DNA of 61,497 nt from a virus (taxonomy: Duplodnaviria > Caudoviricetes). The translations under genes and the position numbers were made by a program. The stretch spans positions 1-61,497 of the IMG/VR virus record IMGVR_UViG_3300008258_000001; one strand, given 5' to 3'. Shown piece by piece: positions 25,410-54,716 of this stretch (position 1 is its first letter; each line of letters opens with the position of its first letter). The notes below the pieces were generated by a model, which saw only the letters and a list, made by a program, of their open reading frames with translations, made no database searches and was not told the origin of the DNA.

Positions 25410-25415
25410 GGTTCG

Positions 25416-25559: not shown

Positions 25560-25581
25560 TCGTGGCAGCATGGGCTAGGTC

Positions 25582-25611
25582 GCACAACCTGACGCGCGTG
25601 TCGGAATGTAC
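25582..25611. promoter_or_regulatory. 30-bp palindromic site, copy 1
   Basis: GCACAACCTGAC-GCGCGT-GTCGGAATGTAC, ending 2 bp before the -35 of the first early promoter. Confidence 0.8.
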
Positions 25612-25613
25612 GC

Positions 25614-25642
25614 TTGCATTGTCGCCTTGATTGTGGTCTAAT
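25614..25642 (+). promoter_or_regulatory. Early sigma70-like promoter P1
   Basis: TTGCAT-N17-TCTAAT with TGn extension. Confidence 0.6.
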
Positions 25643-25691
25643 ATGCATGTGGTCGTTTTGGCCACGCATTCAATCATTCAAAGGCAAAAAG

Positions 25692-26381
25692 ATGGAAACC
25701 AAAGCAATCGAAAGCACGCCCGTTCGCGCGTTTGGCATCGAATTGAAAACCGCTAGCGATGCCGGCTCAGTGTATGCATTGGCCGATGGTGCGACCGATA
25801 CGGTCTTGAAATTCTATGACGGGCTCATGGGAGCAAAACCGACGTTTACCGTATGGGAGGCTGCGCGCCTTTCATGGCGCGCTGGTTTTGCCTCGCAGCG
25901 TGAAGGCGTGAAAGCCAATACGATAGATAAGGCTTGGTCACGGTTCGCAACCGGTCTCACTGCCGAAAAGCCGAAAGCCGATAACGCGAACGCGGCACGC
26001 GTTTCGTCTGCGCGGGTCGACCCTTTCAAGGGAAAGCCGGTAGAGGAAATAAAAGCCGCGCGCGAAGCGGCCGGAGCAAAAATCGCGGCCGGCGACGTCA
26101 GCAAGGAAACCGCGAAAGAGTACAGGCAAGCCGTCGATGCCGAAATCAATGCGCGCAAAGAAGAAGAAAAGGCGGCCGAAAAGAAGAAAACCGAAGCACT
26201 AAAGCCGCGCAGGGACGCTATCCGCGAACTAGCATCGAAAGCCGATGACGATACCCTGTCGCTGATCGAGGCGGCCGTTGAAATTCGATCGGCCGATGCG
26301 GCCACCCGTGCTCGCGCATGGGCTCGCCTCACTGAGGCGGCCGGCGAGATTGCCAAGCCGACGAAAGGCAAGACCAAGTAA
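25692..26381 (+). CDS. First early gene, Ala/Lys/Glu-rich helical hypothetical protein (229 aa)
   Basis: ATG 25692 (METKAIES...) after AAGG; has its own promoter and terminator. Confidence 0.75.
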   Translation: METKAIESTPVRAFGIELKTASDAGSVYALADGATDTVLKFYDGLMGAKPTFTVWEAARLSWRAGFASQREGVKANTIDKAWSRFATGLTAEKPKADNANAARVSSARVDPFKGKPVEEIKAAREAAGAKIAAGDVSKETAKEYRQAVDAEINARKEEEKAAEKKKTEALKPRRDAIRELASKADDDTLSLIEAAVEIRSADAATRARAWARLTEAAGEIAKPTKGKTK

Positions 26382-26399
26382 ACTGACATTGCAACACCG

Positions 26400-26424
26400 G
26401 CCCCGCTTCGGCGGGGCTTTTTTT
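26400..26424 (+). terminator. Rho-independent terminator
   Basis: GCCCCGC-TTCG-GCGGGGC-TTTTTTT. Confidence 0.92.
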
Positions 26425-26429
26425 CGCCC

Positions 26430-26459
26430 GTACATTCTGACCGATCGGTCAGGCTGTGC
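26430..26459. promoter_or_regulatory. 30-bp palindromic site, copy 2
   Basis: GTACATTCTGAC-CGATCG-GTCAGGCTGTGC. Confidence 0.8.
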
Positions 26460-26990
26460 AAACCTAGTTTGCTCATGTAAACCCTGTAAACTTTACACTG
26501 TAACCCTGCTTTGCAGGGATTGATGATAGGTCGGCCACACGCCACAGGCACCCGGCAACGGGCGTTTACGCCACAAATAAAGCTATGAACTGGTGTACGC
26601 CAACGGTTAACCAACTTGCATTATTCATAATTTACAAGATTATTTTCTAATGTACCGGGTAATGGAAAAGACAGACTTGTAAACCCGAGAGCGCGTTGGA
26701 CGCGCAATCCATCTCGTGGTTTTTTGTGTAGCCTGTAAATAGTTGCGTATGGCTTTGTCATCGTAAACTTACATTTCCCCACTTTTCAGCGTTACTCCCC
26801 CCCTCTTTTTTCCGTGTTGTAATAATAGAATGTAAAATTAAACCGAGTTAACACCCACTCTTTTCCCTTTACAACCGCCCCGCTGGCGGCCCCGACCTAG
26901 ACGACTCTCACAGACCCACAAATAAAGTTCGCTCGTCGCACAGACACTACAAATACGGTACGAACAGCGCCACAAACACAAGCAAACACA
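26460..26990. other. AT-rich non-coding region with repeated TGTAAA/TTTACA hexamers (candidate origin or packaging control region)
   Basis: Exact hexamers at 26476, 26485, 26492, 26631, 26678, 26734, 26831, 26868; no credible ORF. Confidence 0.5.
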
Positions 26991-26991
26991 C

Positions 26992-27020
26992 TTGACACGA
27001 CACTTGACATCTGCGATAAT
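26992..27020 (+). promoter_or_regulatory. Strong sigma70 promoter P2
   Basis: TTGACA-N17-GATAAT with TGn; preceded by AAACACAC, as is P3. Confidence 0.8.
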
Positions 27021-27063
27021 ATGTTGTGGTCGTTCGTCTGTTGAACGGCCCGCAGCAAGACCC

Positions 27064-27093
27064 GCACAACCTGACAACACCGTCAGAATGTTC
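27064..27093. promoter_or_regulatory. 30-bp palindromic site, copy 3
   Basis: GCACAACCTGAC-AACACC-GTCAGAATGTTC, in the 5' leader downstream of P2. Confidence 0.8.
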
Positions 27094-27121
27094 TGTTAAC
27101 TCACTTACTGGAGAACATGCA

Positions 27122-27337
27122 ATGCCGCTTTGCAGTCCCTGTCAACTTCGTGGCGACGAGACGCCCGTCGACCCCGCCCGATGGGAACTCGGTTATCACA
27201 CATGCCTGCCATGTGGCGACTCGCAGGCCAAGCAACGGGCCAAGACCCGCTGTGTTGTGCCACTTAACAAATCCAACTACATCCACGTGACTGACTACAC
27301 CCTGCTGGCCCAACTCAACCCCAAGAGGACAACCTGA
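27122..27337 (+). CDS. C4 zinc-finger early protein (TraR/DksA-like finger), 71 aa
   Basis: CSPC...PARWELGYHTCLPC; GGAG RBS. Confidence 0.65.
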   Translation: MPLCSPCQLRGDETPVDPARWELGYHTCLPCGDSQAKQRAKTRCVVPLNKSNYIHVTDYTLLAQLNPKRTT

Positions 27338-27338
27338 C

Positions 27339-27563
27339 ATGAACACATACCGAGTAGACCGAGCGATGTCCCTTGTTACCCCGTGCGGCATGAACTCGAT
27401 TTTGTACATTGGCGACAGCGCATACGAGGCCGCCAAAGTCTACAACTACGCCGATCCGGGCAAGGACGCGTGGAACCAACCGAACGCCGCGTATGGCGTC
27501 ATCTTGTCGGTGTGGAACCCCGACGCCAACGATTACCGCATTAAGCGCAGCAAGGGACTGTGA
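27339..27563 (+). CDS. Hypothetical protein (74 aa)
   Basis: GAGGA RBS; operon spacing. Confidence 0.7.
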   Translation: MNTYRVDRAMSLVTPCGMNSILYIGDSAYEAAKVYNYADPGKDAWNQPNAAYGVILSVWNPDANDYRIKRSKGL

Positions 27564-27814
27564 CCATGAGCCAACGACGCAAGGAAGTCGTCGCTTTAGC
27601 GTGGAATGGACTCGTCCACAACCTGCGGCGCATGGAGCGCACGACGCTCGAACTGATGCGCCATCCTGAAGCAACGGACAAAGACGTCATGGCTGCGGCC
27701 AACAGTTACCGCGACGCGTACCGACGTATGCGAGAGACCGAGCACAAGGTGCAGACCTTCACGGGTTCGCACTTCCTGCTTGCCAAACTGACCCCGAACA
27801 AGGACTCGAAGTGA
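27560..27814 (+). CDS. Hypothetical protein (~83 aa)
   Basis: GTGA coupling; helical. Confidence 0.65.
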   Translation: MTMSQRRKEVVALAWNGLVHNLRRMERTTLELMRHPEATDKDVMAAANSYRDAYRRMRETEHKVQTFTGSHFLLAKLTPNKDSK

Positions 27815-27885
27815 TCGACCGAATCATTCTCTGGCTCTGCATCGCCCTCTGGCCACTGGCTCTGTGGCTGGCGATCAACACCTGA
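27811..27885 (+). CDS. 24-aa hydrophobic micropeptide MIDRIILWLCIALWPLALWLAINT (not in ORF track)
   Basis: GTGA coupling, AAGGA RBS, single TM composition. Confidence 0.55.
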   Translation: MIDRIILWLCIALWPLALWLAINT

Positions 27886-27891
27886 AACCCC

Positions 27892-27921
27892 GCACAACCT
27901 GACATCCGCGTCAGGTTGTGC
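27892..27921. promoter_or_regulatory. 30-bp palindromic site, copy 4 (perfect)
   Basis: GCACAACCTGAC-ATCCGC-GTCAGGTTGTGC. Confidence 0.85.
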
Positions 27922-27940
27922 ACAACAAAGGAAACAAACC

Positions 27941-28777
27941 ATGTTCGCAATCAGCACCCGAGACCTGCCCACGCTTGGCAGTTATGAATCCGCCCGCATC
28001 CAGTGGGATCGCGGCCACCAGTGGCGCAAGGGAGACCCCAACGTCCGGGCCATCAACGATGGCGGACGGCCGAACCGCAACAAGACCATCGTCAAGTACG
28101 ACGACGGGCGCATCGCTGCCCGCCTGCACAGCACGGACCTTGTGACCTACTACCCCGACGGTCGGGTGGTACTCACCCGGTACGACAGCCAATCCTCCAG
28201 CGAGTTCATCACGGCAGTGTGCCCCTATGGCATGTACGCATCCATGCGCCGGGGCTCGTTGTGGTTCCACTGTCATGAAGGGTGGGTTCAGGCCAATAGC
28301 TATGACCGTGGGCTCACGTTCGTACGCAGCACAGCGGAAGGAGCACCACCTAAGTTTGTCCTCGCACCCGGCGAACTGGTGAACGTGGCAAAACACACCG
28401 TCCTGCACGTAGACCGACGAGCGGCCAAGGCAGCGCGAGAGAAGTTCGTTCCGTTCACACAGTGGGTGACCGCAGTGCACGCACTCAGCGGTAACGACAT
28501 GACCGCCTTACTCGGCGACACCCCGCACGCCGTGACCCGCCACGCAGTGAGCGATGTACACGACGACCCGACCAACGTCGAGATGTTCCCTCGCCTGCTG
28601 CGCCTGCTGTGTGCACAGCGGTACAAGTACGCCAACGACAACGTGGTGGCTGTCCGCATGCTGGACTGGAGATGGCAGGCAAAGCTACAACGCCTTGTCT
28701 ACAAGGAGTTCCACTGCTTCACTGAAAAGGAGATCCCGCTCGGGGAGTTGCCCCCCGTTGATCGCTGGAGGAAGTAA
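27941..28777 (+). CDS. Hypothetical early protein (278 aa)
   Basis: AAGGA RBS; RLHSTDLVTYYPDG motif. Confidence 0.8.
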   Translation: MFAISTRDLPTLGSYESARIQWDRGHQWRKGDPNVRAINDGGRPNRNKTIVKYDDGRIAARLHSTDLVTYYPDGRVVLTRYDSQSSSEFITAVCPYGMYASMRRGSLWFHCHEGWVQANSYDRGLTFVRSTAEGAPPKFVLAPGELVNVAKHTVLHVDRRAAKAAREKFVPFTQWVTAVHALSGNDMTALLGDTPHAVTRHAVSDVHDDPTNVEMFPRLLRLLCAQRYKYANDNVVAVRMLDWRWQAKLQRLVYKEFHCFTEKEIPLGELPPVDRWRK

Positions 28778-28783
28778 ACACAC

Positions 28784-28812
28784 TTGACAAGTGTATTGAT
28801 TTGTATCATAAT
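28784..28812 (+). promoter_or_regulatory. Strong sigma70 promoter P3
   Basis: TTGACA-N17-CATAAT. Confidence 0.8.
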
Positions 28813-28870
28813 GTAGTCTGTTGTCGCAGTTCGCTGACAACGCCTTAGTAATTCACTCGGAGTAATTCAA

Positions 28871-29914
28871 ATGGCAAACTATGCCAGCATCATCTCGCTC
28901 GCTTCGCACGTCCTGAAGAACAACCCCACTCAGGCCATCATGGTCTGGGGCGCGCCGGGTTGCGGCAAGTCTCACCTCGCAACCGAGGGTCTGCCCAAGG
29001 CTCTGGGCATGCTGCCGATGGAACATCCTGACAGCCCGGTCAGAATGTTCCGACCCTCGAACCACGACCCGGTGGATCTGACTGGCCTGCCCATGGTCAC
29101 CGAGACCAGCACCAAGTGGATCACCCCGGCATTCCTGCTGGGGATCAACGAACTGGCCGAGCGGCATGGCAAGGCAATGCTCGTGATCGACGAGTTGAAC
29201 CAAGCAGTGCCGATGATGTTCAACACCCTCAACGGTCTGATCCTCGACCGTCGCATTGCCGAGTTCAAGCTGCACCCCGGTGTGCATATCGTTGCCACTG
29301 GTAACCGACAGACGGACAAGGCAGCGTCCAACCGCATGCCTAGCCACACAGCGAATCGCCTTGCTCACTTCGACATGGAGTCCGACCTCAAAGGCTGGCA
29401 ATCGTGGGCGATCAAGGCGGGCCTGCCCCTGTGGATCGTGTCGTTCCTCGGGTTCCGCCCAAACCTGCTCAACGCGTTCGATGCGGACAAGCGCGAGAAC
29501 CCCACCGAGCGTTCGTGGGAGATGTTCGCCCGTGCTGCTGGTGGCGACCTGCCCTTGGATCTGACCATGACGCTGGCCCAAGGGTTCGTTGGCGAGGGTG
29601 CGGCGGCCGAGGTCGCTGCGTTCCGTCGGGTCGAGGCAGAGATGCCAAACCCTGACGCCTGCCTGCTGTCCCCGAGTACCTCTCCCCTTCCCGATTCCCT
29701 TGCAGCCAAGTACGCCATGGCCGGTGCAATGGCTAACCGCGCAACCAAGCAGAACATCGGTGCTGTGCTTGAGTACATGGGTCGACTAGAAAAGCAGTAC
29801 GAGGTGCTCACCATGCGTAGTGCGTACGTTCGTAAACCCGAGATCACCGCCACCGCTGCGTTCCTCACGTGGGCCGCGCACCCCGACAACGCCCAAGTAT
29901 TCATCGGAGTCTGA
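28871..29914 (+). CDS. MoxR/dynein-related AAA+ ATPase
   Basis: Walker A GAPGCGKS, Walker B LVIDELNQA, IVATGNR, ANRLAH, PTERSWE. Confidence 0.88.
   Translation: MANYASIISLASHVLKNNPTQAIMVWGAPGCGKSHLATEGLPKALGMLPMEHPDSPVRMFRPSNHDPVDLTGLPMVTETSTKWITPAFLLGINELAERHGKAMLVIDELNQAVPMMFNTLNGLILDRRIAEFKLHPGVHIVATGNRQTDKAASNRMPSHTANRLAHFDMESDLKGWQSWAIKAGLPLWIVSFLGFRPNLLNAFDADKRENPTERSWEMFARAAGGDLPLDLTMTLAQGFVGEGAAAEVAAFRRVEAEMPNPDACLLSPSTSPLPDSLAAKYAMAGAMANRATKQNIGAVLEYMGRLEKQYEVLTMRSAYVRKPEITATAAFLTWAAHPDNAQVFIGV
29021..29050. promoter_or_regulatory. 30-bp palindromic site, copy 5 (inside the AAA ATPase CDS)
   Basis: GAACATCCTGAC-AGCCCG-GTCAGAATGTTC. Confidence 0.75.
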
Positions 29915-29915
29915 C

Positions 29916-31094
29916 ATGAACCACGAAACCAAGGTCAAACTGGCAATGAGCCAGATGGTGCTCAAGGCACCCTTCTTCGCCTACCTCACGTTGCAGCGCC
30001 CGGTCACGTTCACCGAGACCATGACCAAGACGGCAGGGGCCGACGCGCGAGGTCGCATCTACATCAACCCGACGTTCATCAAGGATCGCAGCGTGGACGA
30101 GGTGGTGTTCCTGCTGGCGCATGAGGCAATGCACGTTGCGTTCCTACACTGTCACCCGAGTACGGCGCAGGGTCGAGACCAGCGGGCGTGCAACATCGCC
30201 ATGGACAAGGTGATCAACGAGACCCTCATCGCCGAGCGACTCGGCGAGTTCATCGAGGGTGGGCAGCGGCACGCCGGTGCTGAGAAGATGACGTGGGAGC
30301 AGTTGTACGTCGACCCGCCCGAGGACGATGGAGGTGGCGGCGGTGGGTCCGGTGGTGACTCTGGCTCATCGGAGATGATAGGTCGCTCTGGCGACGTAGG
30401 CGGCATCGGCGACGATTTGTTGCCCTGTCCGGACGGTGAGCCCATCGGTGTTGAGGCCGAGACGCTGCGCGATCAGATGCGTGGTGAACTGGTCAGCGCA
30501 GCCAACGCAGCCAAGATGGTCGGTGCACTGTCGGCAAACATGCAGCGCGTGTTGAAGGACATCATCTTCCCGCCGACACCGTGGCATGCCATCCTCGAAC
30601 GGTTCATGCAGTCGTTCGTGTCCAGCGACTACTCGTGGAAGCGGCCCAACCGTCGTTTCGTGGGGCAAGGCATCTATCTGCCATCGCTCGACAAGCAGCC
30701 GCGCATGGGCAAGATCGGACTCATCGCCGACACCTCGGGCTCTATCGGTCAGCGCGAGGCCGACGCGTTCAACGGACACTTCAACCGCATCATCGAGACC
30801 TGCATGCCCGAGGAAGTCATCGTGCTGTCTGTCGACAGCGAGGTGTGCGGTGTGCAGCGTTTCGAGCCCGACGACTTCCCCGTCAAGTGGGACCCCAAGG
30901 GTGGCGGAGGTACGGACATGCGAGAGGGTTGGGCGTGGTTCGACAAGAACGAGACCGACCTCGACTGCATCGTGTGCCTGACCGACGGTCTCACCCCATG
31001 GCCCGACAGCGTGAACACCCCGAGCATCGTTCTGTCCACCACCGACAAAGTTGCGCCTGCTGCCGTGGGCGAGACCGTCCACTTCAAAGTTTAA
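29916..31094 (+). CDS. Metallopeptidase-VWA protein (DUF2201-like)
   Basis: LAHEAMH (HExxH), NIAMD..IN, MIDAS DTSGS, GGGGTD, LTDG. Confidence 0.88.
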   Translation: MNHETKVKLAMSQMVLKAPFFAYLTLQRPVTFTETMTKTAGADARGRIYINPTFIKDRSVDEVVFLLAHEAMHVAFLHCHPSTAQGRDQRACNIAMDKVINETLIAERLGEFIEGGQRHAGAEKMTWEQLYVDPPEDDGGGGGGSGGDSGSSEMIGRSGDVGGIGDDLLPCPDGEPIGVEAETLRDQMRGELVSAANAAKMVGALSANMQRVLKDIIFPPTPWHAILERFMQSFVSSDYSWKRPNRRFVGQGIYLPSLDKQPRMGKIGLIADTSGSIGQREADAFNGHFNRIIETCMPEEVIVLSVDSEVCGVQRFEPDDFPVKWDPKGGGGTDMREGWAWFDKNETDLDCIVCLTDGLTPWPDSVNTPSIVLSTTDKVAPAAVGETVHFKV

Positions 31095-31101
31095 TCACCC
31101 C

Positions 31102-31131
31102 GTACATCCTGACAACCACGTCAGGATGTAC
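31102..31131. promoter_or_regulatory. 30-bp palindromic site, copy 6 (perfect)
   Basis: GTACATCCTGAC-AACCAC-GTCAGGATGTAC. Confidence 0.85.
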
Positions 31132-31153
31132 ACACCAACCGGAGTTACTTACC

Positions 31154-32020
31154 ATGAATCTCAATGACATCAAGATCCCTTCGCTCGCTGAACGTGCCAT
31201 CCTCGTGCGCTTGAAGCGCAGTATGTTCCAGCCCTATGCGTACGACTCGGTGCAGACCACCAAGATCGAGGCCGAGTCCGGCGTGCTCAAGGCAGGCCGG
31301 TTCAACAAGCGCCTGTTCCTCGACTGCTACGAGGTCAAGGACACCAACGCTGCGTTCAACGACGTGTACAAGTACGTTCAGCGCAGCACGACCCCGTGGC
31401 TGGATGATGGCGTGCGTATGCTGCCGAGCGCCATGTACTTCGACTTCACTGCCGGAGTGCGGGAACTCATCGCCGTTGCCAAGCGCAAGGTGGACAACCT
31501 CGCGCCCAAGTGGGACACGCTTGTTGCACAAGACCTCGCTCGTCTCAAGCACCTCGGCGACCCGAAGGACTACCCCACCGACATCCGTGCGCGGTACGAC
31601 ATCGGGCTCAAGTTCCTGCCTGTGCCTACGGTCAACGACTTCCGCGTGGAGATCAGCGACGACGACCGTGCATCACTCGACTCCGCTATCCGCGAGGCCG
31701 AGGAGGGCATCACTAAGTACCTCGTGTCCGAGTTGCTTCAGCCAATCAAAAAGGCGGCCGAGAAGCTGGCCGTGCCCATCGGTCACGATGGTTCGTTCTT
31801 CCACGACTCGTTGTTCAACAACATCACGGAGATGGTCGAGCGCGCCAAGAAACTCAACATCATGGACGACCCCACGGTGTCGGCACTGGTGACCGACATC
31901 GAGCGCAACGTGGGTAAGTACGCCCTCGCACCTGACTTGGTGCGCGAGGACATCGGTGCGCGCAATACGGCGCAGTCCGAACTCGAAGCGATCATGTCCA
32001 AGATGGCCGGTCTTTTCTGA
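31154..32020 (+). CDS. DUF3150-like protein (288 aa)
   Basis: AGRFNKRL, TTPWLDDGVRMLP, DYPT, PVPTVNDFRV; typical partner of AAA/VWA; GGAG RBS. Confidence 0.7.
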   Translation: MNLNDIKIPSLAERAILVRLKRSMFQPYAYDSVQTTKIEAESGVLKAGRFNKRLFLDCYEVKDTNAAFNDVYKYVQRSTTPWLDDGVRMLPSAMYFDFTAGVRELIAVAKRKVDNLAPKWDTLVAQDLARLKHLGDPKDYPTDIRARYDIGLKFLPVPTVNDFRVEISDDDRASLDSAIREAEEGITKYLVSELLQPIKKAAEKLAVPIGHDGSFFHDSLFNNITEMVERAKKLNIMDDPTVSALVTDIERNVGKYALAPDLVREDIGARNTAQSELEAIMSKMAGLF

Positions 32021-32033
32021 TCAGGAGTAAACC

Positions 32034-32684
32034 ATGACAGTGTTATTTACTAAACAGTTCTGGTCGGACACCAGCAACTTGCTTACCGCATACGCCCGAG
32101 AGGAAACCGCCGAGCATAAGTTCGACAAATCAGATGTACACGTCGACGCTGCCCCGCTGGCCGAACGCATCATGTGGGGTGAGCACTACCACCTCAAGGA
32201 GGTCATGCCGTTGACGTGGCAAAAGCGTATCACTTTGTTCGACTATAAGTTTGTTTACGCTGACAACGCCGATCACGTCCGGTTGAGACTGAACAAGGGA
32301 GCCGCTGTTTATTTCCCGCCGTACGTTGTCTCCGGCTTGCCTGACGTAGGTGTAATGGTGAACGATCATCTGCCAGTCGAACAGGAGTACGCCAACGAGG
32401 TAGCCATCCTCAAGGCCCGGTATCAAGATTTCGCCAAGAGGGTAGAAATTAGCAAGAAGTGGGACTCTGTGTATCACCGTCTGCGCTTGGTGTTCGCGGG
32501 GTATCGTTCTCTCAGCGGCGCGTGTGCGGCGCACCCCGAACTGAAGGTGCTTATCCCCAACGAGTATCTTTCCAAGCTCACCATACCCAAGCGAGTGCCA
32601 AGCCGAGTGGGTTCACAGGAATATGTGAACGAGCTTGTTGCCGCTGCCGTTGAAGCCAAACTACGAAGGATGAACAAGTCATGA
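32034..32684 (+). CDS. Hypothetical protein, possibly Nmad5-like (216 aa)
   Basis: AGGAG RBS; C-terminal SL..AC.AHPELKVLIP; family assignment weak. Confidence 0.6.
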   Translation: MTVLFTKQFWSDTSNLLTAYAREETAEHKFDKSDVHVDAAPLAERIMWGEHYHLKEVMPLTWQKRITLFDYKFVYADNADHVRLRLNKGAAVYFPPYVVSGLPDVGVMVNDHLPVEQEYANEVAILKARYQDFAKRVEISKKWDSVYHRLRLVFAGYRSLSGACAAHPELKVLIPNEYLSKLTIPKRVPSRVGSQEYVNELVAAAVEAKLRRMNKS

Positions 32685-32821
32685 ACCCCGACAGCATCGA
32701 AGCCCGCCTGAAGCGTATCGAGACGACACTGTATCTGTTGTGCCGTCACCTCGGTCTCGACCCTCGCACCAACGAGCGGTTGGCTGACCATCCACCCGCG
32801 CCACCCAAGCACGAGCGCTAA
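32681..32821 (+). CDS. Hypothetical protein (46 aa, MNPDSIEARLKRIETTLYLLCRHLGLDP...)
   Basis: ATGA coupling; not in ORF track. Confidence 0.6.
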   Translation: MNPDSIEARLKRIETTLYLLCRHLGLDPRTNERLADHPPAPPKHER

Positions 32822-32828
32822 CATGAGA

Positions 32829-32858
32829 GCACAACCTGACAAGCGCGTCAGGTTGTGC
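32829..32858. promoter_or_regulatory. 30-bp palindromic site, copy 7 (perfect)
   Basis: GCACAACCTGAC-AAGCGC-GTCAGGTTGTGC. Confidence 0.85.
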
Positions 32859-32900
32859 GTTGACTCCGATCGTTCACCAACGTAAATTTAAGGGACTCAG

Positions 32901-33062
32901 ATGAAAACAGAAATGCTGCGCCGCGCCCGTAAGAACTGGTTCGTGGCTGGCGTACCAACGCAGACCAGCCGCTCCAACATGCGCAAGTGGGTCAAGGCGG
33001 TTCGTGTGCTTGGCGACAAGTGGATTTTGGTTTCTCCGGTGCGCCGAAAGGACTCGGTATGA
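32901..33062 (+). CDS. Small basic protein (53 aa, MKTEMLRRARKNW...WVKAVRVLGDKWIL)
   Basis: AAGGGA RBS; ATGA coupling to the next gene; not in ORF track. Confidence 0.65.
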   Translation: MKTEMLRRARKNWFVAGVPTQTSRSNMRKWVKAVRVLGDKWILVSPVRRKDSV

Positions 33063-34586: not shown

Positions 34587-34765
34587 AAGACTGGATCATG
34601 GAACTGTTCCCCGAGATTCCCGAGTGGCAAGCCGATACCATCATCGAGCAAGTTCGTATCAGGGTGAAGTCCGAGCGTGAGGCGTGTGCGAGGGTGTGTG
34701 ACGGATGGACACATGCAGACGGCGATGCTTGCGCTGAAGCCATCCGCGCAAGGGGGGAGAAATGA
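34583..34765 (+). CDS. Modular mini-protein (60 aa, MKDWIMELF...EREACARVC...AIRARGEK)
   Basis: ATG within the linker. Confidence 0.7.
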   Translation: MKDWIMELFPEIPEWQADTIIEQVRIRVKSEREACARVCDGWTHADGDACAEAIRARGEK

Positions 34766-35127: not shown

Positions 35128-35318
35128 TCCGAAAAATTCTTGCATTGTTCGGGCTGCGGGTTGTGTACGTGTCAGATTGGGGATCTCGTTCGCGCCGGTA
35201 CGACAGCATAGACCGACTCATGGGGAGGCCGATCCACAAGCGGATGAGTGTGGCGCCGCCTTGGGCAAGGCTTCGCATCGAACGCGCCAAAGCCATCGGC
35301 GCAAGGGAGAAAAAATGA
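35124..35318 (+). CDS. Basic mini-protein (64 aa)
   Basis: GTGA coupling; ends with AIGAREKK linker. Confidence 0.65.
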   Translation: MIRKILALFGLRVVYVSDWGSRSRRYDSIDRLMGRPIHKRMSVAPPWARLRIERAKAIGAREKK

Positions 35319-35746
35319 CTAAAGACACCGTGCAAGTAAATCGTGATGTACTTGTTCAGGTGCTGGAGGTACTCGTTCGCGCCAGCAGTTACTACGACAC
35401 CTATGCGGAGATTGACGCCCTCCGCGCCGCGCTTGAGCAGCAGACCGAGCCTGTGGCGTGGAGAGCCGTGGGCGGCAGCATCTGGGGGCACAAGGGCAAT
35501 GAAGACGACACTCCTCTTTACGATCACCCACCCCGCCGCGAGTGGCGAGGGCTGACGGAGGAGGAAATTGAATACCCGCACCCGCCAGCAAAGCCGCCTG
35601 TCTACGCAACATCGCAAAATACCAAGGCCGTGCGTGATGGGTTTGTGATGGGCGGGTACGAAAAAGAGCCGGGTTATTACTCGGAAGAACAGCTTGACGA
35701 GTTTGCCCGCGCCGTCGAAGCGTTGCTTAAGGAGAAAAACAAATGA
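35315..35746 (+). CDS. Modular mini-protein (143 aa, MTKDTVQVNRDVL...EPVAW...GLTEEEI...FARAVEALLKEKNK)
   Basis: ATG within the linker; N-terminus paralogous to 34762. Confidence 0.75.
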   Translation: MTKDTVQVNRDVLVQVLEVLVRASSYYDTYAEIDALRAALEQQTEPVAWRAVGGSIWGHKGNEDDTPLYDHPPRREWRGLTEEEIEYPHPPAKPPVYATSQNTKAVRDGFVMGGYEKEPGYYSEEQLDEFARAVEALLKEKNK

Positions 35747-36090
35747 GTGACCTACGAACCCCTGCACAATCAGAGCAAGAGCCTGCTGCGTGGATTCATA
35801 AGTACATCCACGACGCTTTCACTAAGCGTAGACCCGCCGACTTGAATAGGCATCCCGACAGATGGATTCCTCTTTACAAGAACCCCACACCGTGCGAAAC
35901 CTGTCAATCGCTGGCCCGCACTGTGATGATGGATCAAACATCGCACGATAACCCCCCACCTCGCCGCGAATGGCAGGGACTGACGGATGAGGAGATCGTC
36001 AAGTTTGCGGATGAAGTTAGCGGCGAAGAACACTCTGTTGAGGACTTTGCCCGCGCCATCGAGGCCGTTTTAAGGAGCAAGAACAAGTGA
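35743..36090 (+). CDS. Modular mini-protein (EPAAW...CETC...GLTDEEI...FARAIEA)
   Basis: ATG within the linker. Confidence 0.75.
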   Translation: MSDLRTPAQSEQEPAAWIHKYIHDAFTKRRPADLNRHPDRWIPLYKNPTPCETCQSLARTVMMDQTSHDNPPPRREWQGLTDEEIVKFADEVSGEEHSVEDFARAIEAVLRSKNK

Positions 36091-36380
36091 AACGATTTAC
36101 CGCATACCGCAGAAACATTAGCCAGCGTGACACTCACAACGAGATGCAAAAGAACGCAGACCACGAGCCTCAGTTTGAAGGCGTCATCTGGTCCGACGGG
36201 ACTGTCACTTTGCGCTGGCTTACTGCATGTCGATCAACGTCCGTATGGGCAAGTATCAAGGATTGCTTGAATATTCATGGTCACCCTGAATACGGCACAG
36301 AGATTGTCTGGCATGACGCTGAAGCGCCGCAAGAATGGACGGATCAAGTTGAGGCCGCGCTGAAGGAGAAGAACAAGTGA
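36087..36380 (+). CDS. Hypothetical protein (97 aa; FEGVIWSDGTVTLRW...IHGH)
   Basis: GTG within the linker; ends ALKEKNK. Confidence 0.75.
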   Translation: MKRFTAYRRNISQRDTHNEMQKNADHEPQFEGVIWSDGTVTLRWLTACRSTSVWASIKDCLNIHGHPEYGTEIVWHDAEAPQEWTDQVEAALKEKNK

Positions 36381-36556
36381 GCCAAGGCAAAACATATCTG
36401 CTGCAACTTAGTGCTGCGTTACTGGAGCAAGTTATCTACGCATTGATGGCACGAAAGCGAGAGCTTAATAATCGCCCGGATCTAGATTCAGAGATGCTTG
36501 TCCACACGCAAGCTGCGCTTGATGCTGCTCATGCGGTTAAGGAGAAGACCAAGTGA
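36377..36556 (+). CDS. Hypothetical protein (59 aa, MSQGKTYLLQ...AVKEKTK); not in ORF track
   Basis: Open frame running exactly between two linkers. Confidence 0.7.
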   Translation: MSQGKTYLLQLSAALLEQVIYALMARKRELNNRPDLDSEMLVHTQAALDAAHAVKEKTK

Positions 36557-36792
36557 CCCGCGACGACATCATCCGCATGGCGCGAGAGGCTGGCGGAGGC
36601 AGGGTATTTGACGCAATGGTGTTTGACCGCGACGAATATCTTGAACGCTTCGCCGCCCTTGTCGCCGACTACGTCAGAGCGCAGTACCCCGACCGCGAGG
36701 CGCTGGAGCAGCAGTACCAAGCAGGCTGCGGCCACTGTAATCACCCCTTGTACGCAGGCATCAAGTGCGGCGTGTGCGGGAAGTCATCATGA
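36553..36792 (+). CDS. Modular mini-protein with C-terminal Zn finger (DDIIRMAREAG...CGHC...CGVC)
   Basis: GTG within the linker. Confidence 0.75.
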   Translation: MTRDDIIRMAREAGGGRVFDAMVFDRDEYLERFAALVADYVRAQYPDREALEQQYQAGCGHCNHPLYAGIKCGVCGKSS

Positions 36793-36980
36793 GCGAGAAC
36801 CGCAACATGCCAGCCGCATCAGGCGAGGTTTATTGGCGCGAGCCGCAAGACGAATCGCCACCCAGAGGAGTGAAACTGCTCATCCTCACATCCGGTGGTG
36901 TCGCGGTTTTTGGTGATTGGATGGACGATTCAAACTTCGTGGCGTGGTCGCCGCTGCCAAAGAGGAGAGGTAAAAGATGA
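36789..36980 (+). CDS. DUF551-like small protein (63 aa)
   Basis: PPRGVKLLILT.GG...AWSPLPKR. Confidence 0.65.
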   Translation: MSENRNMPAASGEVYWREPQDESPPRGVKLLILTSGGVAVFGDWMDDSNFVAWSPLPKRRGKR

Positions 36981-37147
36981 GCATCACAGACAAACTTGTT
37001 TTAGTAATTCTCGCTGTAGCCGTGGCGGTCGTCGTCGCCCTCATTCCACGAGCGCCGAGCGATCCGTGTGGTGTGGCTGAGTTTGCACCTGACGTACCGC
37101 AACACATTAAAGAGCAGTGCCGTCAACACCCGAGGATCAAAACATGA
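36977..37147 (+). CDS. Small membrane-anchored protein (56 aa, TM + C..AEFAPD.P...KEQCR); not in ORF track
   Basis: GAGG RBS; ATGA coupling on both ends. Confidence 0.65.
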   Translation: MSITDKLVLVILAVAVAVVVALIPRAPSDPCGVAEFAPDVPQHIKEQCRQHPRIKT

Positions 37148-37308
37148 AAATCATTGGACACCCGGTTGAGTTTGACATCGCCCACGAGCCACCTGATGCG
37201 CCAGAGAAACGAAAGCCGCTCACGGACGAAGAAATCAGTATCCTGTGGCATGAGTCGGGCGGTCAGCCATTCAAGTTTGCAAGGATGATTGAGGAGTCGG
37301 TGGGGTGA
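37144..37308 (+). CDS. Mini-protein with PLTDEEI...FAR.IE module (54 aa)
   Basis: ATGA coupling. Confidence 0.65.
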   Translation: MKIIGHPVEFDIAHEPPDAPEKRKPLTDEEISILWHESGGQPFKFARMIEESVG

Positions 37309-37667
37309 ACAAACACAACTCGTGGGAGCGGATTCTCACCGCGCTTTCAGAACCTATGACGTACCACAGGCTCGCCACGTTTGTTCATCTTCATCCCCGC
37401 ACCGTTGCCCGTATTCTCAGGGACATGGAGCAGGAGAAGTTTGTTCACATTGCGCGGTGGGAGCATTGCAGTGTGCAGGGCCCGATGGCTGCCGTGTACA
37501 AAAAAGGAAACGGTCAATCAGTACCTCGGCCACGCGCCATGACTTCAGCAGAGAAGGCTCGAAAGAGCCGCGCCAACATGGACCCACGCAAGAAAGAATC
37601 TGTGATGGCCCGTCGGCGCAAGGTCAAGCCAGACTTTGCAGCCAGTTGGTTGTTTGGAGAAAGATGA
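37305..37667 (+). CDS. Winged-HTH DNA-binding protein
   Basis: MTYHRLATFVHLHPRTVARILRDM...VHIARW. Confidence 0.65.
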   Translation: MNKHNSWERILTALSEPMTYHRLATFVHLHPRTVARILRDMEQEKFVHIARWEHCSVQGPMAAVYKKGNGQSVPRPRAMTSAEKARKSRANMDPRKKESVMARRRKVKPDFAASWLFGER

Positions 37668-37840
37668 TGAGCGCATGTCCACAGCCTGAGTGCCGCAGTT
37701 TTCAGTCGCGCGTACTGGAGACCCGTAAGCAGGACAACGGCTGGATTAAGCGAAGAAGGCTTTGCCCGTGCAGCCGCATCTGGTGGACGTTCGAGATCGC
37801 TGAACAAGACCTCATACAAAACGAAGAAAGTCAGGAATGA
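37664..37840 (+). CDS. NrdR-like zinc-ribbon protein (58 aa)
   Basis: CPQPEC...SRVLETR...KRRRLCPC...WTFE. Confidence 0.65.
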   Translation: MMSACPQPECRSFQSRVLETRKQDNGWIKRRRLCPCSRIWWTFEIAEQDLIQNEESQE

Positions 37841-38031
37841 AATGTCAGAAATGCCAGCAGTGGATGAAGGCCGTGAAGGTGAAGCAAAGCCGAAACGGAG
37901 GGTTAAGGGTTCTGCACGAGTGCGAGCAGGGCCATCAATCAGTGGAGTTAAAACCAAACGAAAGCCGGGATGGCCCTTCCTCTACTACGAGGAGAACGGA
38001 GTCCTCTACTACAACCCGGCACCCAGAGTGA
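37837..38031 (+). CDS. Zinc-ribbon small protein (overlaps alternative ORF 37842..38078)
   Basis: MKCQKC...ECEQGH; ATGA coupling. Confidence 0.5.
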   Translation: MKCQKCQQWMKAVKVKQSRNGGLRVLHECEQGHQSVELKPNESRDGPSSTTRRTESSTTTRHPE

Positions 38032-38086
38032 CCAAACAAAAACAACAAGCGACTGACTTCGAGCCAGCGCTGTTCTAGGGGTAAGC

Positions 38087-40033
38087 ATGAGACTGTGTGT
38101 AATTGACTTCGAGACGTATTGGACCAAGGAGCACTCGCTCTCCAAGATGTCTCCACTGGCGTACGTTGTACATCCTGACACTGATGTCATTTCGTGCGCC
38201 ATCAAGATCGACGACGGGCCGACGAAGGTTGTGTTCGGCGAGGACAAGATCCGCGATCTGTTGAACCTGATGGACTGGTCTGATGTCATGGTTGTCGCGC
38301 ACAACATGAGCGGGTTCGATGCGCTCATCCTCGCGTGGCGGTTTGGAGTGAAGCCAAAGATGTGGGGCTGCACACTGGCTATGGCGCGGCCCATCCACTC
38401 GATCACGGTCGGCGGTTCATTGGGTAAACTGGTGGCGCACTACGGGCTAGGCGTCAAAGACAACACCGTCCTCGTGCAGACGCAGGGCAAGCGCATCAAA
38501 GACTTCACGCCCGACGAACTGTCCGCCATGGAGCAGTACAACAAGGCCGACACAGATCAGTGCGCGGCGCTGTTCCACAAGCTAAAGAAGCAATACACAG
38601 CCAAGGAGTTGTGGCATATCGACGCGACTATCCGCATGCTGGTCGAGCCGAAGTTCAAGGTGGATGTGGCAGTCCTTGAAGCGGCGGCGGCAATCGAGCG
38701 GTCTACCAAGCGTCAGTCACTGCTTGACCTGTACCAGATGTTGCAGTCCCCGCTGGACATGGAAGATGACCCACTGGGAAATGTTGGGTTTGATCCAGAG
38801 GAGTTCGTGCGCGAGCAGATGGCGTCAGCCCCGAAGTTCGCTGCGCTGTTGGAGAAGCGTGGCGTGCCGGTGCCAATGAAGCCCTCCCCCACCAACCCGG
38901 AGAAGATGACGCCGGCGCTCGCCAAGACAGACGAGGCGTTCCTCAAGCTACAGGAGCACAAGGACCCCATCGTGGCAGCGGCTGCGCGTGTTCGCGTGGC
39001 GGTCAAATCCACACTGCTTGAGACACGCATCGCTGCGTTCTTGGAGGCGAGCCGGTGCGCCAAGGGGTTCCTCCCTATCCCTCTGCATTACTGCGGAGCC
39101 GCGACGACCGGCCGCTGGTCGGGCTGGCTGTTCAACCCACAGAACTTGCCGCGCGTGCCGCGAGACAAGAGCGGCAACATCATCGTCAAGCCAACCAACT
39201 CGCTGCGGACCTGCATGCGTGCACTCAAGGGGCACAAAGTTGTGGTGGCTGACCTCTCCGGTATTGAGTTGCGGGTCAACCACTTCCTATGGAAAGTGCC
39301 GTCCTCCATGCGTCTGTTCCAAGACGACCCGGCCAAGGCCGACTTGTACAAGGACTTCGCCTCTCGCCTGTACAACGTGGACATGGAGGAAGTGACCAAG
39401 GACCAACGGCAGATCGGAAAGATCGCTCACCTCGGGCTTGGGTTTGGCGCAGGGCCGTCGACCTTCCAACGCATCGCCAAAATCATGGGCGGGGTGGACA
39501 TGCCCGAGTCCGAGGCAATGTCGGTGACCTACCGCTGGCGTGAGGAGTACGCACCAATCGTTGAGGGGTGGAAGCGGTGCCACAGCACGCTGACTTCTAT
39601 CCTAATGGGCGACAAGGTGCAGATCGACGATTGGGGCCTGTGCCACACGGAAGCCAACGCCATCGTGCTACCGAGCGGGCGGCGCATCCGCTACCCGAGT
39701 CTGGTCAAGGACACCGTTGGCGGTAAGAGCGAATGGTTCTACGGAGAAGGCAGACATCGTGCCCGCATCTACGCAGGGAAGATTGACGAGAACATCGTTC
39801 AGGCTTTGGCACGCGACGTGATAGCTGATTGCGCTGTCGAGATGTTCCGGCGAACCAAGTTGCGCCCCGCGCACACCGTCCACGACGAGTTGGTTTACGT
39901 AGTCCCTGAATCAGACGCACAAAGTGTGCTGGACGAGGTTCAGTCCATAATGAGAACACCGCCTCAGTGGTGGCCCGAATTAGTGACGTGGAGTGAAGGC
40001 GACATTGCTGGCACTTACGGACACGCCAAGTAA
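38087..40033 (+). CDS. polA: DNA polymerase family A with 3'-5' exonuclease
   Basis: Exo motifs IDFETY, AHN..FD, YN.AD; TTGRWS, NPQNLPR; motif A ADLSGIELR, motif B RQIGKIAHLGLGFG, motif C TVHDELV. Confidence 0.95.
   Translation: MRLCVIDFETYWTKEHSLSKMSPLAYVVHPDTDVISCAIKIDDGPTKVVFGEDKIRDLLNLMDWSDVMVVAHNMSGFDALILAWRFGVKPKMWGCTLAMARPIHSITVGGSLGKLVAHYGLGVKDNTVLVQTQGKRIKDFTPDELSAMEQYNKADTDQCAALFHKLKKQYTAKELWHIDATIRMLVEPKFKVDVAVLEAAAAIERSTKRQSLLDLYQMLQSPLDMEDDPLGNVGFDPEEFVREQMASAPKFAALLEKRGVPVPMKPSPTNPEKMTPALAKTDEAFLKLQEHKDPIVAAAARVRVAVKSTLLETRIAAFLEASRCAKGFLPIPLHYCGAATTGRWSGWLFNPQNLPRVPRDKSGNIIVKPTNSLRTCMRALKGHKVVVADLSGIELRVNHFLWKVPSSMRLFQDDPAKADLYKDFASRLYNVDMEEVTKDQRQIGKIAHLGLGFGAGPSTFQRIAKIMGGVDMPESEAMSVTYRWREEYAPIVEGWKRCHSTLTSILMGDKVQIDDWGLCHTEANAIVLPSGRRIRYPSLVKDTVGGKSEWFYGEGRHRARIYAGKIDENIVQALARDVIADCAVEMFRRTKLRPAHTVHDELVYVVPESDAQSVLDEVQSIMRTPPQWWPELVTWSEGDIAGTYGHAK
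38168..38197. promoter_or_regulatory. Degenerate copy 8 of the 30-bp site, inside the 5' end of polA
   Basis: GTACATCCTGAC-ACTGAT-GTCATTTCGTGC (left arm identical to copy 6). Confidence 0.5.
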
Positions 40034-54710: not shown

Positions 54711-54716
54711 GGCGCT

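Follow-up and report, generated by a model that had tools for sequence, protein, structure and literature searches.

The early arm of the window, the whole 61,497-bp stretch of phage DNA analyzed here, carries an array of 30-bp palindromic sites (12-N6-12) that is probably a set of protein-bound operators acting on early transcription. Whether the sites act as operators and roadblocks for a dimeric phage-encoded regulator, probably the first early product gp1, on early transcription by the host RNA polymerase (sigma70-type) is a more evenly balanced matter, with about as much for it as against it.

A palindromic site array confined to the early arm

The window derives from an uncultured freshwater phage, here called W. 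Eight matches to the 12-N6-12 IUPAC consensus were found across it at three or fewer mismatches (none at 27064, 27892, 29021, 31102 and 32829; one each at 25582 and 26430; three at 38168). Chance expectation is zero, with a mean of 0.00 and a maximum of 0 matches in 100 dinucleotide-preserving shuffles of the window. A position-weight scan scored seven full sites at 35.4–40.1 bits and the copy at 38168 at 23.2 bits, with no further full site of at least 14 bits anywhere in the 61,497 bp and none in 20/20 shuffles; the matrix was trained on these very sites, so only the lack of further sites and the shuffles carry information. Positions 27327 and 43981 carry strong isolated half-sites, and no half-site above 14.2 bits occurs in the late arm (1–25400) or the right minus-strand arm (49374–61497). 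The seven strong sites span 25582–32858, approximately the first 7 kb of the early arm (25582–38197 with the degenerate copy). The initial annotation had described an array restricted to the early arm and absent from the late arm, with a half-site at 27327; the scans bear this out and add the half-site at 43981. The placements that it gave, next to a -35, after a terminator, in leaders, and inside the AAA ATPase and polA coding sequences, also hold. The copy at 31102 is intergenic, directly after the DUF2201 stop codon.

Features of the array, in window coordinates:
25582–25611, no strand: site 1, GCACAACCTGAC-GCGCGT-GTCGGAATGTAC; 3' edge 2 nt upstream of the P1 -35
25614–25642, plus: P1, sigma70-like promoter TTGCAT-N17-TCTAAT, predicted to drive gp1 (read from the sequence)
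25692–26381, plus: gp1, first early gene, 229 aa, candidate site-binding regulator
26399–26425, plus: intrinsic terminator of the gp1 cassette
26430–26459, no strand: site 2, immediately 3' of the gp1 terminator
26992–27020, plus: P2, sigma70-like, TTGACA-N17-GATAAT, 11/12 matches (promoter scan)
27064–27093, no strand: site 3, in the P2 leader, approximately 36–65 nt past the inferred start of transcription; the ATG at 27122 follows after 28 nt
27327–27338, plus: isolated half-site GGACAACCTGAC, 14.8 bits, abutting the ATG at 27339
27892–27921, no strand: site 4, perfect palindrome in the intergenic gap from a stop codon to the following ribosome-binding site, with 19 nt to the ATG at 27941
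28784–28812, plus: P3, sigma70-like, TTGACA-N17-CATAAT, 11/12 matches (promoter scan)
29021–29050, no strand: site 5, within the AAA_5 ATPase coding sequence, codons 51–60 (EHPDSPVRMF), approximately 200 nt 3' of P3
31102–31131, no strand: site 6, perfect palindrome, 7 nt past the DUF2201 stop codon, ahead of the following ribosome-binding site and 22 nt before the ATG at 31154
32829–32858, no strand: site 7, perfect palindrome, 7 nt past the stop of a 46-aa ORF and 1 nt upstream of the P4 -35 TTGACT
32860–32888, plus: P4, sigma70-like, TTGACT-N17-TAAATT (promoter scan)
38168–38197, no strand: degenerate copy in the polA coding sequence, left half perfect, right half weak, 23.2 bits
43981–43992, plus: isolated half-site GTACATCCCGAC, with a sigma70-like match approximately 190 nt downstream at 44175

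The arms are conserved, the spacers differ among all eight sites, and some arms do not pair, as had been described. Arms pair perfectly in sites 4, 6 and 7 and fail at a single position in site 5; in site 2 one position does not pair and two form wobbles, and sites 1 and 3 each contain three unpaired positions. Each half-site consists of two recognized blocks, GNACA and CTGAC, with two free positions between them, and the inner blocks of the two half-sites are spaced approximately one helical turn apart.

Sites hold a fixed register with early promoters

Within the array lie the plus arm's four strongest sigma70-like promoters (P1–P4), each with a site: sites 1 and 7 abut the -35 elements of P1 and P4, site 3 is in the P2 leader, and site 5 is at approximately +200 of P3. 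Over these 7 kb, the seven sites together cover every early promoter and junction between genes. The promoter scan found no 11/12 match in the plus arm beyond the array. P1 is below the threshold of that scan, and its -35 matches at 3/6 positions; this element reads TTGACG in one contig loose end from metagenome run X11. Five array-bearing phages were compared: W, G001, L135 (a metagenome contig), G005 and G004. The P1 counterparts are TTGACA-17-CATAAT in G001, TTGACA-17-TCTAAT in L135 and TTGCAT/TATAAT in G005. The palindrome lies exactly 2 nt before the gp1-promoter -35 in all four phages with a clear site there (W, G001, L135 and G005), and in 5/5 phages a second copy closes the gp1 cassette on its 3' side.

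The array is conserved in distant relatives

Relatives carry the motif, and the array is conserved across deep divergence (25–40% amino-acid identity). G001 (seven sites, GGACANNCTGAC-N6-GTCAGNNTGTCC) and L135 (five sites) share both the motif and the layout of W. The palindrome is altered in G005, which has four sites of the variant GGAAAnnCRGAC-N5/6, and in G004, which has three sites of TAACAAATCC..GGATTTGTTA and one degenerate copy. Site 12596 of G001 lies in a leader equivalent to that of site 3, with a conserved CTCACTTACTG..GGAG stretch, and site 6674 of L135 is likewise upstream of the ATG of the following gene. L135 lacks the AAA_5 and DUF2201 genes.

In other lake and freshwater metagenomes, the four site 1 differences among those listed either affect free positions 6/7 or the spacer, or revert to the consensus (GTCGG to GTCAG, in metagenome contigs); sites 2 and 3 have no differences among those listed, which reach position 27874. 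No RNA run contained the sequence. Across 185,579 species genomes, a strict 30-bp pattern, which would miss degenerate host sites, had nine single copies, each in a different and unrelated taxon, so the motif does not appear there as a host regulator box or REP-type repeat. A scan of viral contigs gave 10 stretches; only G001 had two of them, and outside the relatives there were single copies only.

gp1 as the candidate binder

The array is linked to gp1, the only early-region ORF family common to all five phages. Motif class tracks the gp1 N-terminal domain: the three same-motif phages have 27–35% identity in this domain with an AWSR helix in common, whereas G001 and G005, whose motifs differ, are 48% identical in the C-terminal half of gp1 and 26% in the N-terminal domain. 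This co-variation rests on five phages, and general divergence could mimic it. Similarly, the synteny of site, P1, gp1, terminator and site is equally expected if gp1 is merely a regulated target.

Structure prediction modeled gp1 as a symmetric homodimer with a score of 0.69 (best of three controls, 0.00), a mark reached by 20/30 proteins solved as one-chain pairs and by 1/23 solved as single chains. At least 94% of contacts recur between the homodimer runs, the partner pLDDT is at least 77, and the model supports gp1 pairing rather than demonstrating it. gp1 has no recognizable DNA-binding fold or family, which counts against it as the binder. Together with 38 aligned family members it had no Pfam or PHROG match; Foldseek at E ≤ 0.001 matched nothing, whether queried with full-length gp1 or with its N-terminal domain; the best VIA-align Z scores, 7.7 with gp1, where the long helix alone aligned, and 5.5 with the N-terminal domain, are both inside the stated noise range of the tool; and a profile search against PDB sequences returned designed helical proteins only. 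We place the case for gp1 as the site binder slightly short of an even chance.

The absence of a known DNA-binding fold in gp1 also speaks for a different binder in the same operator and roadblock role, with gp1 as only the first regulated gene. We regard this as unlikely, though it is the strongest of the alternatives. The binder could then be a virion-delivered phage protein, an unrecognized small early protein or a borrowed host transcription factor. A large virion-arm protein (49374–53603) is also common to W, G001 and G004. A 46-aa ORF (32681–32821) has a weak HTH_35 match (E 0.0088) and a look-alike in L135, with the last site at its 3' end in both phages; a look-alike was searched for in G001 and not found. 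The identical core motif despite 25–40% protein identity is what a conserved host factor predicts, but the nine single copies described above reveal no host regulon, at least to a pattern that misses degenerate sites. Against any such binder, gp1 alone among early ORF families is common to the five phages, and motif class goes with its N-terminal domain, also between phages whose gp1 is otherwise similar.

Of the three candidate binders named in the initial annotation, the first early gene comes out strongest. The winged-helix protein at 37305 lacks a homolog in both G001 and G004, and the Cro-like HTH_3 protein at 46047 has one only in G004, where the palindrome is different; neither occurs together with the motif, and neither is supported as a binder.

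Arm conservation is probably better explained by protein contacts than by pairing

It is improbable, more so than a binder other than gp1, that the sites are mainly RNA (or extruded DNA) hairpins, serving as processing, mRNA-stabilizing or pause/attenuation sites between early cistrons and possibly read by an RNA-binding protein. In favor of this reading, sites 4, 6 and 7 are intergenic, lie in transcribed DNA and have stems paired over all 12 bp (-19.5 to -21.1 kcal/mol, z -6.1 to -7.3). The three clear copies in G004 are likewise fully palindromic, and a symmetric double change in L135 site 7976 (CTGTC...GACAG) can be read as compensatory. Arm pairing and covariation also exceed shuffles (85.1% pairing versus 80.1%, with 0/500 shuffles as high), but by the tool's own warning this control overstates support when the rows are related. 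Sites 1 and 3, by contrast, fold weakly (-7.0 and -7.5 kcal/mol; z -0.22 for site 1), and Rfam had no match for the sites. At arm positions 6 and 7, pairing fails in 8/19 and 11/19 sites, whereas the neighboring blocks are nearly invariant, beyond what pairing needs; this is the pattern of contacts and not of a stem. Site 1 is upstream of P1 and so cannot act as RNA from P1, and its 2-nt gap to the -35 is fixed in four phages. The earlier preference for a dimeric DNA-binding protein over an RNA hairpin is thus supported.

Improbable roles in partition, DNA entry, packaging and recombination

Centromere-like, DNA-entry or packaging sites (partition, injection stop or loading, terminase), also proposed earlier in part, are very improbable. 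Dispersed palindromes within one genome segment would suit them, as would the position of site 1 approximately 170 bp from the small-terminase start codon and the lack of an integrase among the scanned ORFs. No ParA or ParB family match was found in 70 translations, however, the fixed promoter register points to transcription, and the array of G001 lies 6.4–14.7 kb inside a genome end defined by 125-bp direct terminal repeats, beside structural genes different from those in W, which leaves the injection and partition proposal without support. Least credible of all are targets of a site-specific recombinase, whose core sites resemble the 12-6-12 geometry, or a mobile or REP-like repeat: all eight spacers differ, no recombinase family was matched, contigs of four metagenome runs held no joints (contigs cannot exclude rare events), and outside the relatives the motif occurs only as the single copies in genomes and viral contigs given above.

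Proposed function

In the operator and roadblock reading that we prefer, host RNA polymerase would fire the near-consensus P1–P4 upon infection, and gp1, the first product, would build up and dimerize. The alpha C-terminal domain of RNA polymerase and an UP element would sit just upstream of a -35; sites 1 and 7 abut the -35 of P1 and P4 at this place, so gp1 bound there would be expected to repress initiation, which at P1 would amount to autoregulation. Binding itself and this sign of regulation are our inference; the sites, their non-random placement, their conservation and their link to gp1 are observed. At site 3 in the P2 leader, at site 5 approximately 200 nt into the P3 transcript, and at the intercistronic sites 2, 4 and 6, gp1 may act as an elongation roadblock; the intercistronic perfect palindromes may also form RNA hairpins. 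The combined outcome would be shut-off or dosing of an approximately 7-kb immediate-early module. The proposal that a silencing or roadblock system keeps the phage dormant would survive in its roadblock and operator character, and dormancy finds no support: the 70 ORF translations gave no integrase, ParB or repressor family match, and therefore nothing suggests lysogeny.

Comparison with known systems

On the best reading, the W array would work like stoperator, P1 C1 and KorB arrays and belong to none of them. Lambdoid CI/Cro systems combine a dimeric regulator, palindromic sites next to early promoters and autoregulation; their operators are approximately 17 bp long and grouped at two promoter regions, and the proteins that bind them are of HTH_3 type, whereas the only HTH_3 ORF of W (46047–46325) is 13 kb away from the array and shows no co-occurrence with the motif. 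The repressors of P1 (C1) and of Streptomyces phage phiC31 have many dispersed operators, some far from the regulator gene, and belong to temperate-phage immunity systems with sites shorter than those of W; from such general descriptions, the resemblance is a lead only.

In plasmid RK2, some OB operators of KorB lie directly upstream of a -35. KorB (with KorA) reuses this palindromic operator across the replicon and silences several promoters, some distantly; it is a ParB-family CTPase sliding clamp whose OB core is a short palindrome (PMC11790492). W likewise appears to reuse a palindromic operator at many places in one replicon, but has no ParB family match, and each of its sites is 30 bp long, the half-sites being built from two blocks.

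The Cluster A mycobacteriophage immunity repressor (L5 gp71 type) has many sites at promoters and in short intergenic spaces and is proposed to block initiation and elongation; its "stoperators" are asymmetric 13-mers, bound by a monomer and orientation-dependent, and more than 20 of them are scattered across the entire genome in temperate phages (PMC9283540). W likewise mixes promoter-adjacent, leader and intercistronic sites, but these are 30-bp palindromes, 7–8 in number and restricted to the early arm's first 7 kb. W showed no lysogeny genes, and its candidate binder has no detected HTH.

Palindromic sites are confined to the early arm

The window holds a complete IMG/VR virus of 61,497 bp and 57% G+C (phage W), which was divided into three arms.

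Arms, genes and early promoters of phage W
1–25409, minus strand, leftward structural arm
25614–49285, plus strand, rightward early and replication arm
49374 to the end, minus strand, second leftward arm
28871–29914, AAA_5 ATPase (Pfam)
29820–31094, DUF2201 metallopeptidase/VWA protein (Pfam)
38087–40033, polA (Pfam)
25614, plus strand, promoter P1, TTGCAT-17-TCTAAT, read by eye
26992, plus strand, promoter P2, TTGACA-17-GATAAT, 11 of 12 positions
28784, plus strand, promoter P3, TTGACA-17-CATAAT, 11 of 12 positions
32860, plus strand, promoter P4, TTGACT-17-TAAATT, from a promoter scan

Pfam also identified a PD-(D/E)XK nuclease, an SNF2 helicase, a Gp157-like protein and a DUF927 primase-helicase, and most early ORFs received no Pfam or other family assignment. 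The closest named phages, Rhizobium phage RHph_TM3_14A and Pseudomonas phages Rollin and KPP25, are distant (polA approximately 30% identical, TerL 36–42%), and a nucleotide search of cultured phages with the 7,991-bp array region gave no match. Near-identical DNA was present in freshwater and lake metagenome runs (20 rows from 11 studies, four of the rows possibly being the source of the record); there were no RNA runs among those listed.

The initial annotation had described an array of 30-bp palindromes (12-N6-12) in the early arm, and the array was recovered here. The consensus matched eight times, compared with 0.00 in 100 shuffles: seven sites had zero or one mismatch (sites 1–7, starting at 25582, 26430, 27064, 27892, 29021, 31102 and 32829), and a degenerate copy at 38168, in the polA coding sequence, had three. 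Each half-site comprises an outer block (GNACA), two free positions (6 and 7) and an inner block (CTGAC); the inner block centers are 11 bp apart, and the outer blocks each lie 7 bp further outward. A matrix scan agreed with the earlier statement that the late arm lacks sites, since no other full site reached 14 bits anywhere in the genome and the strong ones all fell within 25582–32858. Isolated strong half-sites were found at only two positions, 27327 and 43981. The spacers differ in all eight sites, as had also been noted. Two half-site flavors occur in W, GCACARCCTGAC (A) and GWACATYCTGAC (B), and they are paired in sites 1–7 as A/B, B/A, A/B, A/A, B/B, B/B and A/A.

Population variation was assessed over 25400–33000 using contigs from four lake or freshwater runs. 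Among the 40 of 257 differences that were listed, which extend up to 27874, four lie within site 1. They affect free positions 6 and 7, the spacer and position 22, the last being a change from the deviant G of W to the consensus A; none of those listed lies in site 2 or 3.

Every early promoter is paired with a site

Each of the four sigma70-like early promoters is paired with one site. Site 1 stops 2 nt short of the P1 −35 and site 7 stops 1 nt short of the P4 −35, site 3 is inside the P2 leader, and site 5 is approximately 200 nt into the P3 transcript, within the ATPase coding sequence. Site 2 is located downstream of the first gene's terminator, and sites 4 and 6 each sit between a stop codon and the following ribosome-binding site. 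P2 and P3 are the two best sigma70-like matches of the plus arm, and both lie within the array, as does P4; beyond 33 kb, no comparable promoter was found in the plus arm, where the best match was 10 of 12 positions at 44175. The array marks the host-RNAP immediate-early regulon and most probably gates it.

The layout of the array is conserved in divergent relatives

Two relatives carry the W motif. G001 (64,202 bp, with 125-bp terminal repeats) has six sites at three or fewer mismatches and a weaker seventh, all within 6392–14756, and the metagenome contig L135, whose TerL is 70% identical to that of W, has five. The proteins of G001 are only 25–40% identical to those of W, and its structural genes are unmatched; L135 has packaging genes in common with W and lacks the AAA_5 and DUF2201 genes. 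G001 was the only match in a locus search with the AAA_5 pair. The mosaicism notwithstanding, W, G001 and L135 are laid out alike: the promoter of the homologous first gene is preceded by a site that ends exactly 2 nt ahead of its −35, a second is at the 3′ end of that gene and a third is upstream of the start of the next gene. In W and G001, this third site is located downstream of a sigma70-like −10, within a leader that is partly conserved.

Two further relatives have altered palindromes. In G005, a perfect 30-bp palindrome, GGAAAGTCAGAC-TGCGCA-GTCTGACTTTCC, ends 2 nt before the −35 of gp1, the first early gene, and three further copies of the form GGAAAnnCRGAC-N5-GTCYGnnTTTCC are present, one of them at the gp1 3′ end. 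In G004, TAACAAATCC..GGATTTGTTA palindromes are located after the gp1 terminator and in two other places, with a degenerate copy approximately 8 nt upstream of the gp1 −35. The W motif itself was found in none of the five helicase-related records (G004–G008).

A literature search of article texts returned no description of this array. The array is real and conserved, of the operator type and so far undescribed.

The sites are better explained by recognition of duplex DNA

In an alignment of 19 sites, the blocks G-ACA and CTGAC hardly vary, and the arms fail to pair at position 6 in eight sites and at position 7 in 11. Four phages have site 1 upstream of its promoter, and the predicted RNA fold of the site (−7.0 kcal/mol, z −0.22) is no better than that of shuffled sequence. 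Together, the conserved blocks, the unpaired positions and the placement and weak fold of site 1 favor a symmetric protein that recognizes duplex DNA, as the initial annotation had proposed in preferring a dimeric DNA binder over an RNA hairpin. The transcribed sites may nevertheless have a secondary role as RNA hairpins. Sites 4, 6 and 7, which are intercistronic, form perfect stems of −19.5 to −21.1 kcal/mol, a symmetric double change is present in one of the L135 sites, and pairing over the sites is 85.1% compared with 80.1% in shuffles, a control that is inflated by related rows. Rfam 15 gave no match at the gathering score over the whole window.

The array differs from described multi-site systems

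Arrays in which a single regulator serves many operators have been described in a small number of temperate model phages and plasmids, and the multi-operator systems of P1 C1 and phiC31 offer analogies. The regulatory logic of the array is already known, and the system is not of a new kind. The same logic is now seen in uncultured freshwater phages in which no lysogeny genes were detected, with an operator geometry unlike that of known systems and a −35 register that is fixed across deep divergence.

The array resembles KorB/OB of plasmid RK2, where the OB core is a short palindrome (PMC11790492), unlike the 12-N6-12 site of W with its two conserved blocks per half. KorB is a ParB/Srx-family CTPase. 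In W, 70 ORF translations from outside the structural genes at 3577–24897 gave no match to a ParB, integrase or recombinase family. The stoperators of cluster A mycobacteriophages are asymmetric 13-mers that are bound by a monomer, number more than 20, occur genome-wide and depend on orientation (PMC9283540). The W sites are like them in being located at promoters (sites 1 and 7), in a leader (site 3) and between genes (sites 2, 4 and 6), but they are 30-bp palindromes, they combine mixed half-sites in both orders (A/B, B/A and A/B in sites 1–3) and the strong ones are confined to 25582–32858. The mycobacteriophage repressor has an N-terminal HTH and is homologous to L5 gp71; for W gp1, Pfam, PHROG and fold searches gave no match. 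The array lacks defining features of both systems and also differs from lambdoid operators, recombinase sites and REP elements.

The suggestion that the palindromes are tyrosine-recombinase sites of lox/dif type found no support: all eight spacers differ, and no recombinase family was matched in the 70 translations; contigs of four runs contained no joints between sites, although contigs miss rare events. A REP/MITE element or host regulator box, also raised earlier, likewise found no support: pattern matches in collection scans were mostly single and scattered (10 in viral contigs, 23 in metagenome contigs and, with the strict 30-bp pattern, nine single copies in nine unrelated taxa among 185,579 species genomes), so the motif is not REP-like or a widespread host box, with the qualification that the strict pattern would miss degenerate host sites.

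The first early protein is the candidate binder

The product of the first early gene, gp1 (25692–26381, 229 aa), is the best-supported but unproven candidate for the protein that binds the array. It is the sole early-ORF family common to four phages in an all-against-all BLAST, or to five with a profile. A full-library HMMER search gave 39 representatives at E ≤ 0.001, among which there was no Pfam family, and the source names of 10 homolog clusters were all 'hypothetical' or absent. Among the loci compared, the gp1-family profile matched W, G001, L135 and G004 (E 2.2e-9). Of five further records, it matched G005 (E 1.9e-12) and not the other four, and it matched none of five more; many of these records are incomplete. 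Neither Pseudomonas phage Rollin nor Rhizobium phage RHph_TM3_14A was matched by the profile, tblastn against 50,697 phage records gave no match at E ≤ 0.01, and a locus search of viral contigs with seven close gp1 sequences returned nothing.

Motif class tracks the gp1 N-terminal domain. G001 and G005, whose motifs differ, have gp1 proteins that are 48% identical in the C-terminal half and 26% in the N-terminal domain. W, G001 and L135, which have one motif, show 27–35% N-terminal identity and a common AWSR helix, which is altered to AFGR in G005 and AWNY in G004.

The AlphaFold2 model of gp1 (pLDDT 92.6, pTM 0.55) consists of a short beta-hairpin, a helical N-terminal domain that also folds alone (pLDDT 90.5), a long helix (138–183) and a C-terminal helical domain. 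Homodimer prediction scored 0.69, compared with 0.00 for the best of three controls, with at least 94% contact agreement between runs and a partner pLDDT of at least 77; of the proteins solved as one-chain pairs, 20 of 30 reach the homodimer mark, and of those solved as single chains, one of 23 does. The modeling supports, but does not demonstrate, pairing of gp1 as a homodimer, with a predicted interface made up of helices 21–46 and 57–70 plus the C-terminal domain. Most of the conserved DKAWSRF helix and the basic KPKA segment are outside the confident dimer contacts (residues 81, 84 and 85 touch), and these two elements could be the DNA contacts.

The main weakness of gp1 as the binder is that none of the fold and sequence searches ties it to a known DNA-binding family. 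Foldseek gave no match at E ≤ 0.001 for the whole protein or the N-terminal domain. The best hit of a wide VIA-align search (Z 7.7, rmsd 3.4, 71 aligned) covered the long helix only, and that for the N-terminal domain reached Z 5.5 (rmsd 2.3, 61 aligned). A profile search of PDB sequences found designed helical proteins only, Pfam and PHROG gave no match, and the ESM Atlas returned viral hypothetical clusters only, the nearest named cluster being DUF3102 at 0.87, below lead level.

An HTH_3 protein encoded at 46047 was rejected as a lambdoid-type regulator: it is 13 kb from the array and has a homolog only in G004, which has another palindrome, and not in G001.

C-termini of the form [RK][RK]AA were seen in at least 12 of 38 aligned gp1-family proteins, and W gp1 ends in KGKTK. 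Such ends resemble C-terminal protease degrons and would suit a short-lived regulator.

A bolder reading, considered less likely than not, is that gp1 is the founding member of an undescribed family of early regulators that bind DNA as dimers, have a fold unmatched in the PDB, co-diversify with their operator and act as an immunity-like switch. The operator would be a modular unit of 29–30 bp (outer block, two free positions, inner block and a 5–6-bp spacer) that, together with the gp1 N-terminal domain, would have diverged into the classes GNACA..CTGAC, GGAAA..CRGAC and TAACAAATCC. gp1 would bracket its own gene and gate every host-RNAP early promoter, and freshwater phages that appear to be lytic would in this way possess the switch. 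Its uses could include early shut-off and possibly, when relatives infect the same cell, their exclusion or cross-talk between them.

The candidate regulator family has neither annotation nor known fold, and gp1 and a 30-bp site form a directly testable pair for which G001 and G005 supply natural specificity variants. The array also means that the regulation of early genes can be deduced from sequence where early proteins are almost all unannotated. Should gp1 not be the binder, the array would still mark the immediate-early regulon and four host-type promoters.

Additional features of the early region and of related phages

Like sequence follows the −10 at P1 (25643–25665), P2 (27021–27045) and P3 (28813–28835), and the sequence after the −10 of the G004 gp1 promoter (about 61460, minus strand) resembles it (TGTGGTCGTT / TCTGTTGTCGC). 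This likeness points to conservation of an initial transcribed region or discriminator. Upstream of site 1, W has two copies of a G-rich direct repeat, GGGGGTGGGGCGGG (25505–25555), and G005 has four GGGAAAGAC-like direct repeats upstream of its palindrome (44400–44520).

A 13-nt motif, TGTAAACCTAGTT, forms an inverted pair around the gp1 cassette (25450–25462, minus strand; 26457–26469, plus strand). The copies have zero and one mismatch, and nowhere else in the genome is there one with fewer than two. The terminase genes, which run leftward, have one copy upstream of them, and the other directly abuts site 2. The motif might serve a second regulator as its site, or it might be a promoter element specific to the phage.

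A noncoding stretch of approximately 540 bp (26460–26990) separates site 2 from P2. It is relatively A+T-rich and contains several TGTAAAC-like repeats as well as a 12-nt sequence, CCACAAATAAAG, that is repeated exactly at 26571 and 26916. Only two of the listed population differences (26857 and 26977) fall within it, compared with many in the 3′ part of gp1. Rfam matched nothing there, and the stretch may contain an origin, encode a small RNA or form a second regulatory region.

A 46-aa ORF (32681–32821) has a weak HTH_35 match (E 0.0088) and a look-alike in L135 (11695–11847), both containing RxETxL...LGLDP; in both phages, the last array site is at or just past the 3′ end of this ORF. A search for the LGLDP motif found no look-alike in G001. 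The first gene of the P2 operon (27122–27337, 71 aa) has a CxxC-x20-CxxC pattern resembling that of TraR/DksA-type zinc ribbons; its only Pfam match at E ≤ 0.1 was a chance one, and the ORFs in the same place in G001 and L135 are unrelated.

The cultured, syntenic phage RHph_TM3_14A (MN988472.1), which is without gp1, has a palindrome of its own, AGTTACC-N5/6-GGTAAC, in at least 11 copies over the early arm (17.7–51.3 kb), many of them in annotated coding sequences. Pseudomonas phage Rollin (OR577172.1) has five AAAAGGTAG-N7-CTACCTTTT copies within approximately 500 bp at the record junction (record positions 3–500 and 61264), a separate and tightly clustered palindrome family.

Logan contigs of several runs end at palindrome centers (25593, 29037, 31113–31120 and 32845–32852), which is most likely an artifact of k-mer assembly at inverted repeats and not biology. 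Breaks of this kind could fragment these phages in metagenome assemblies.
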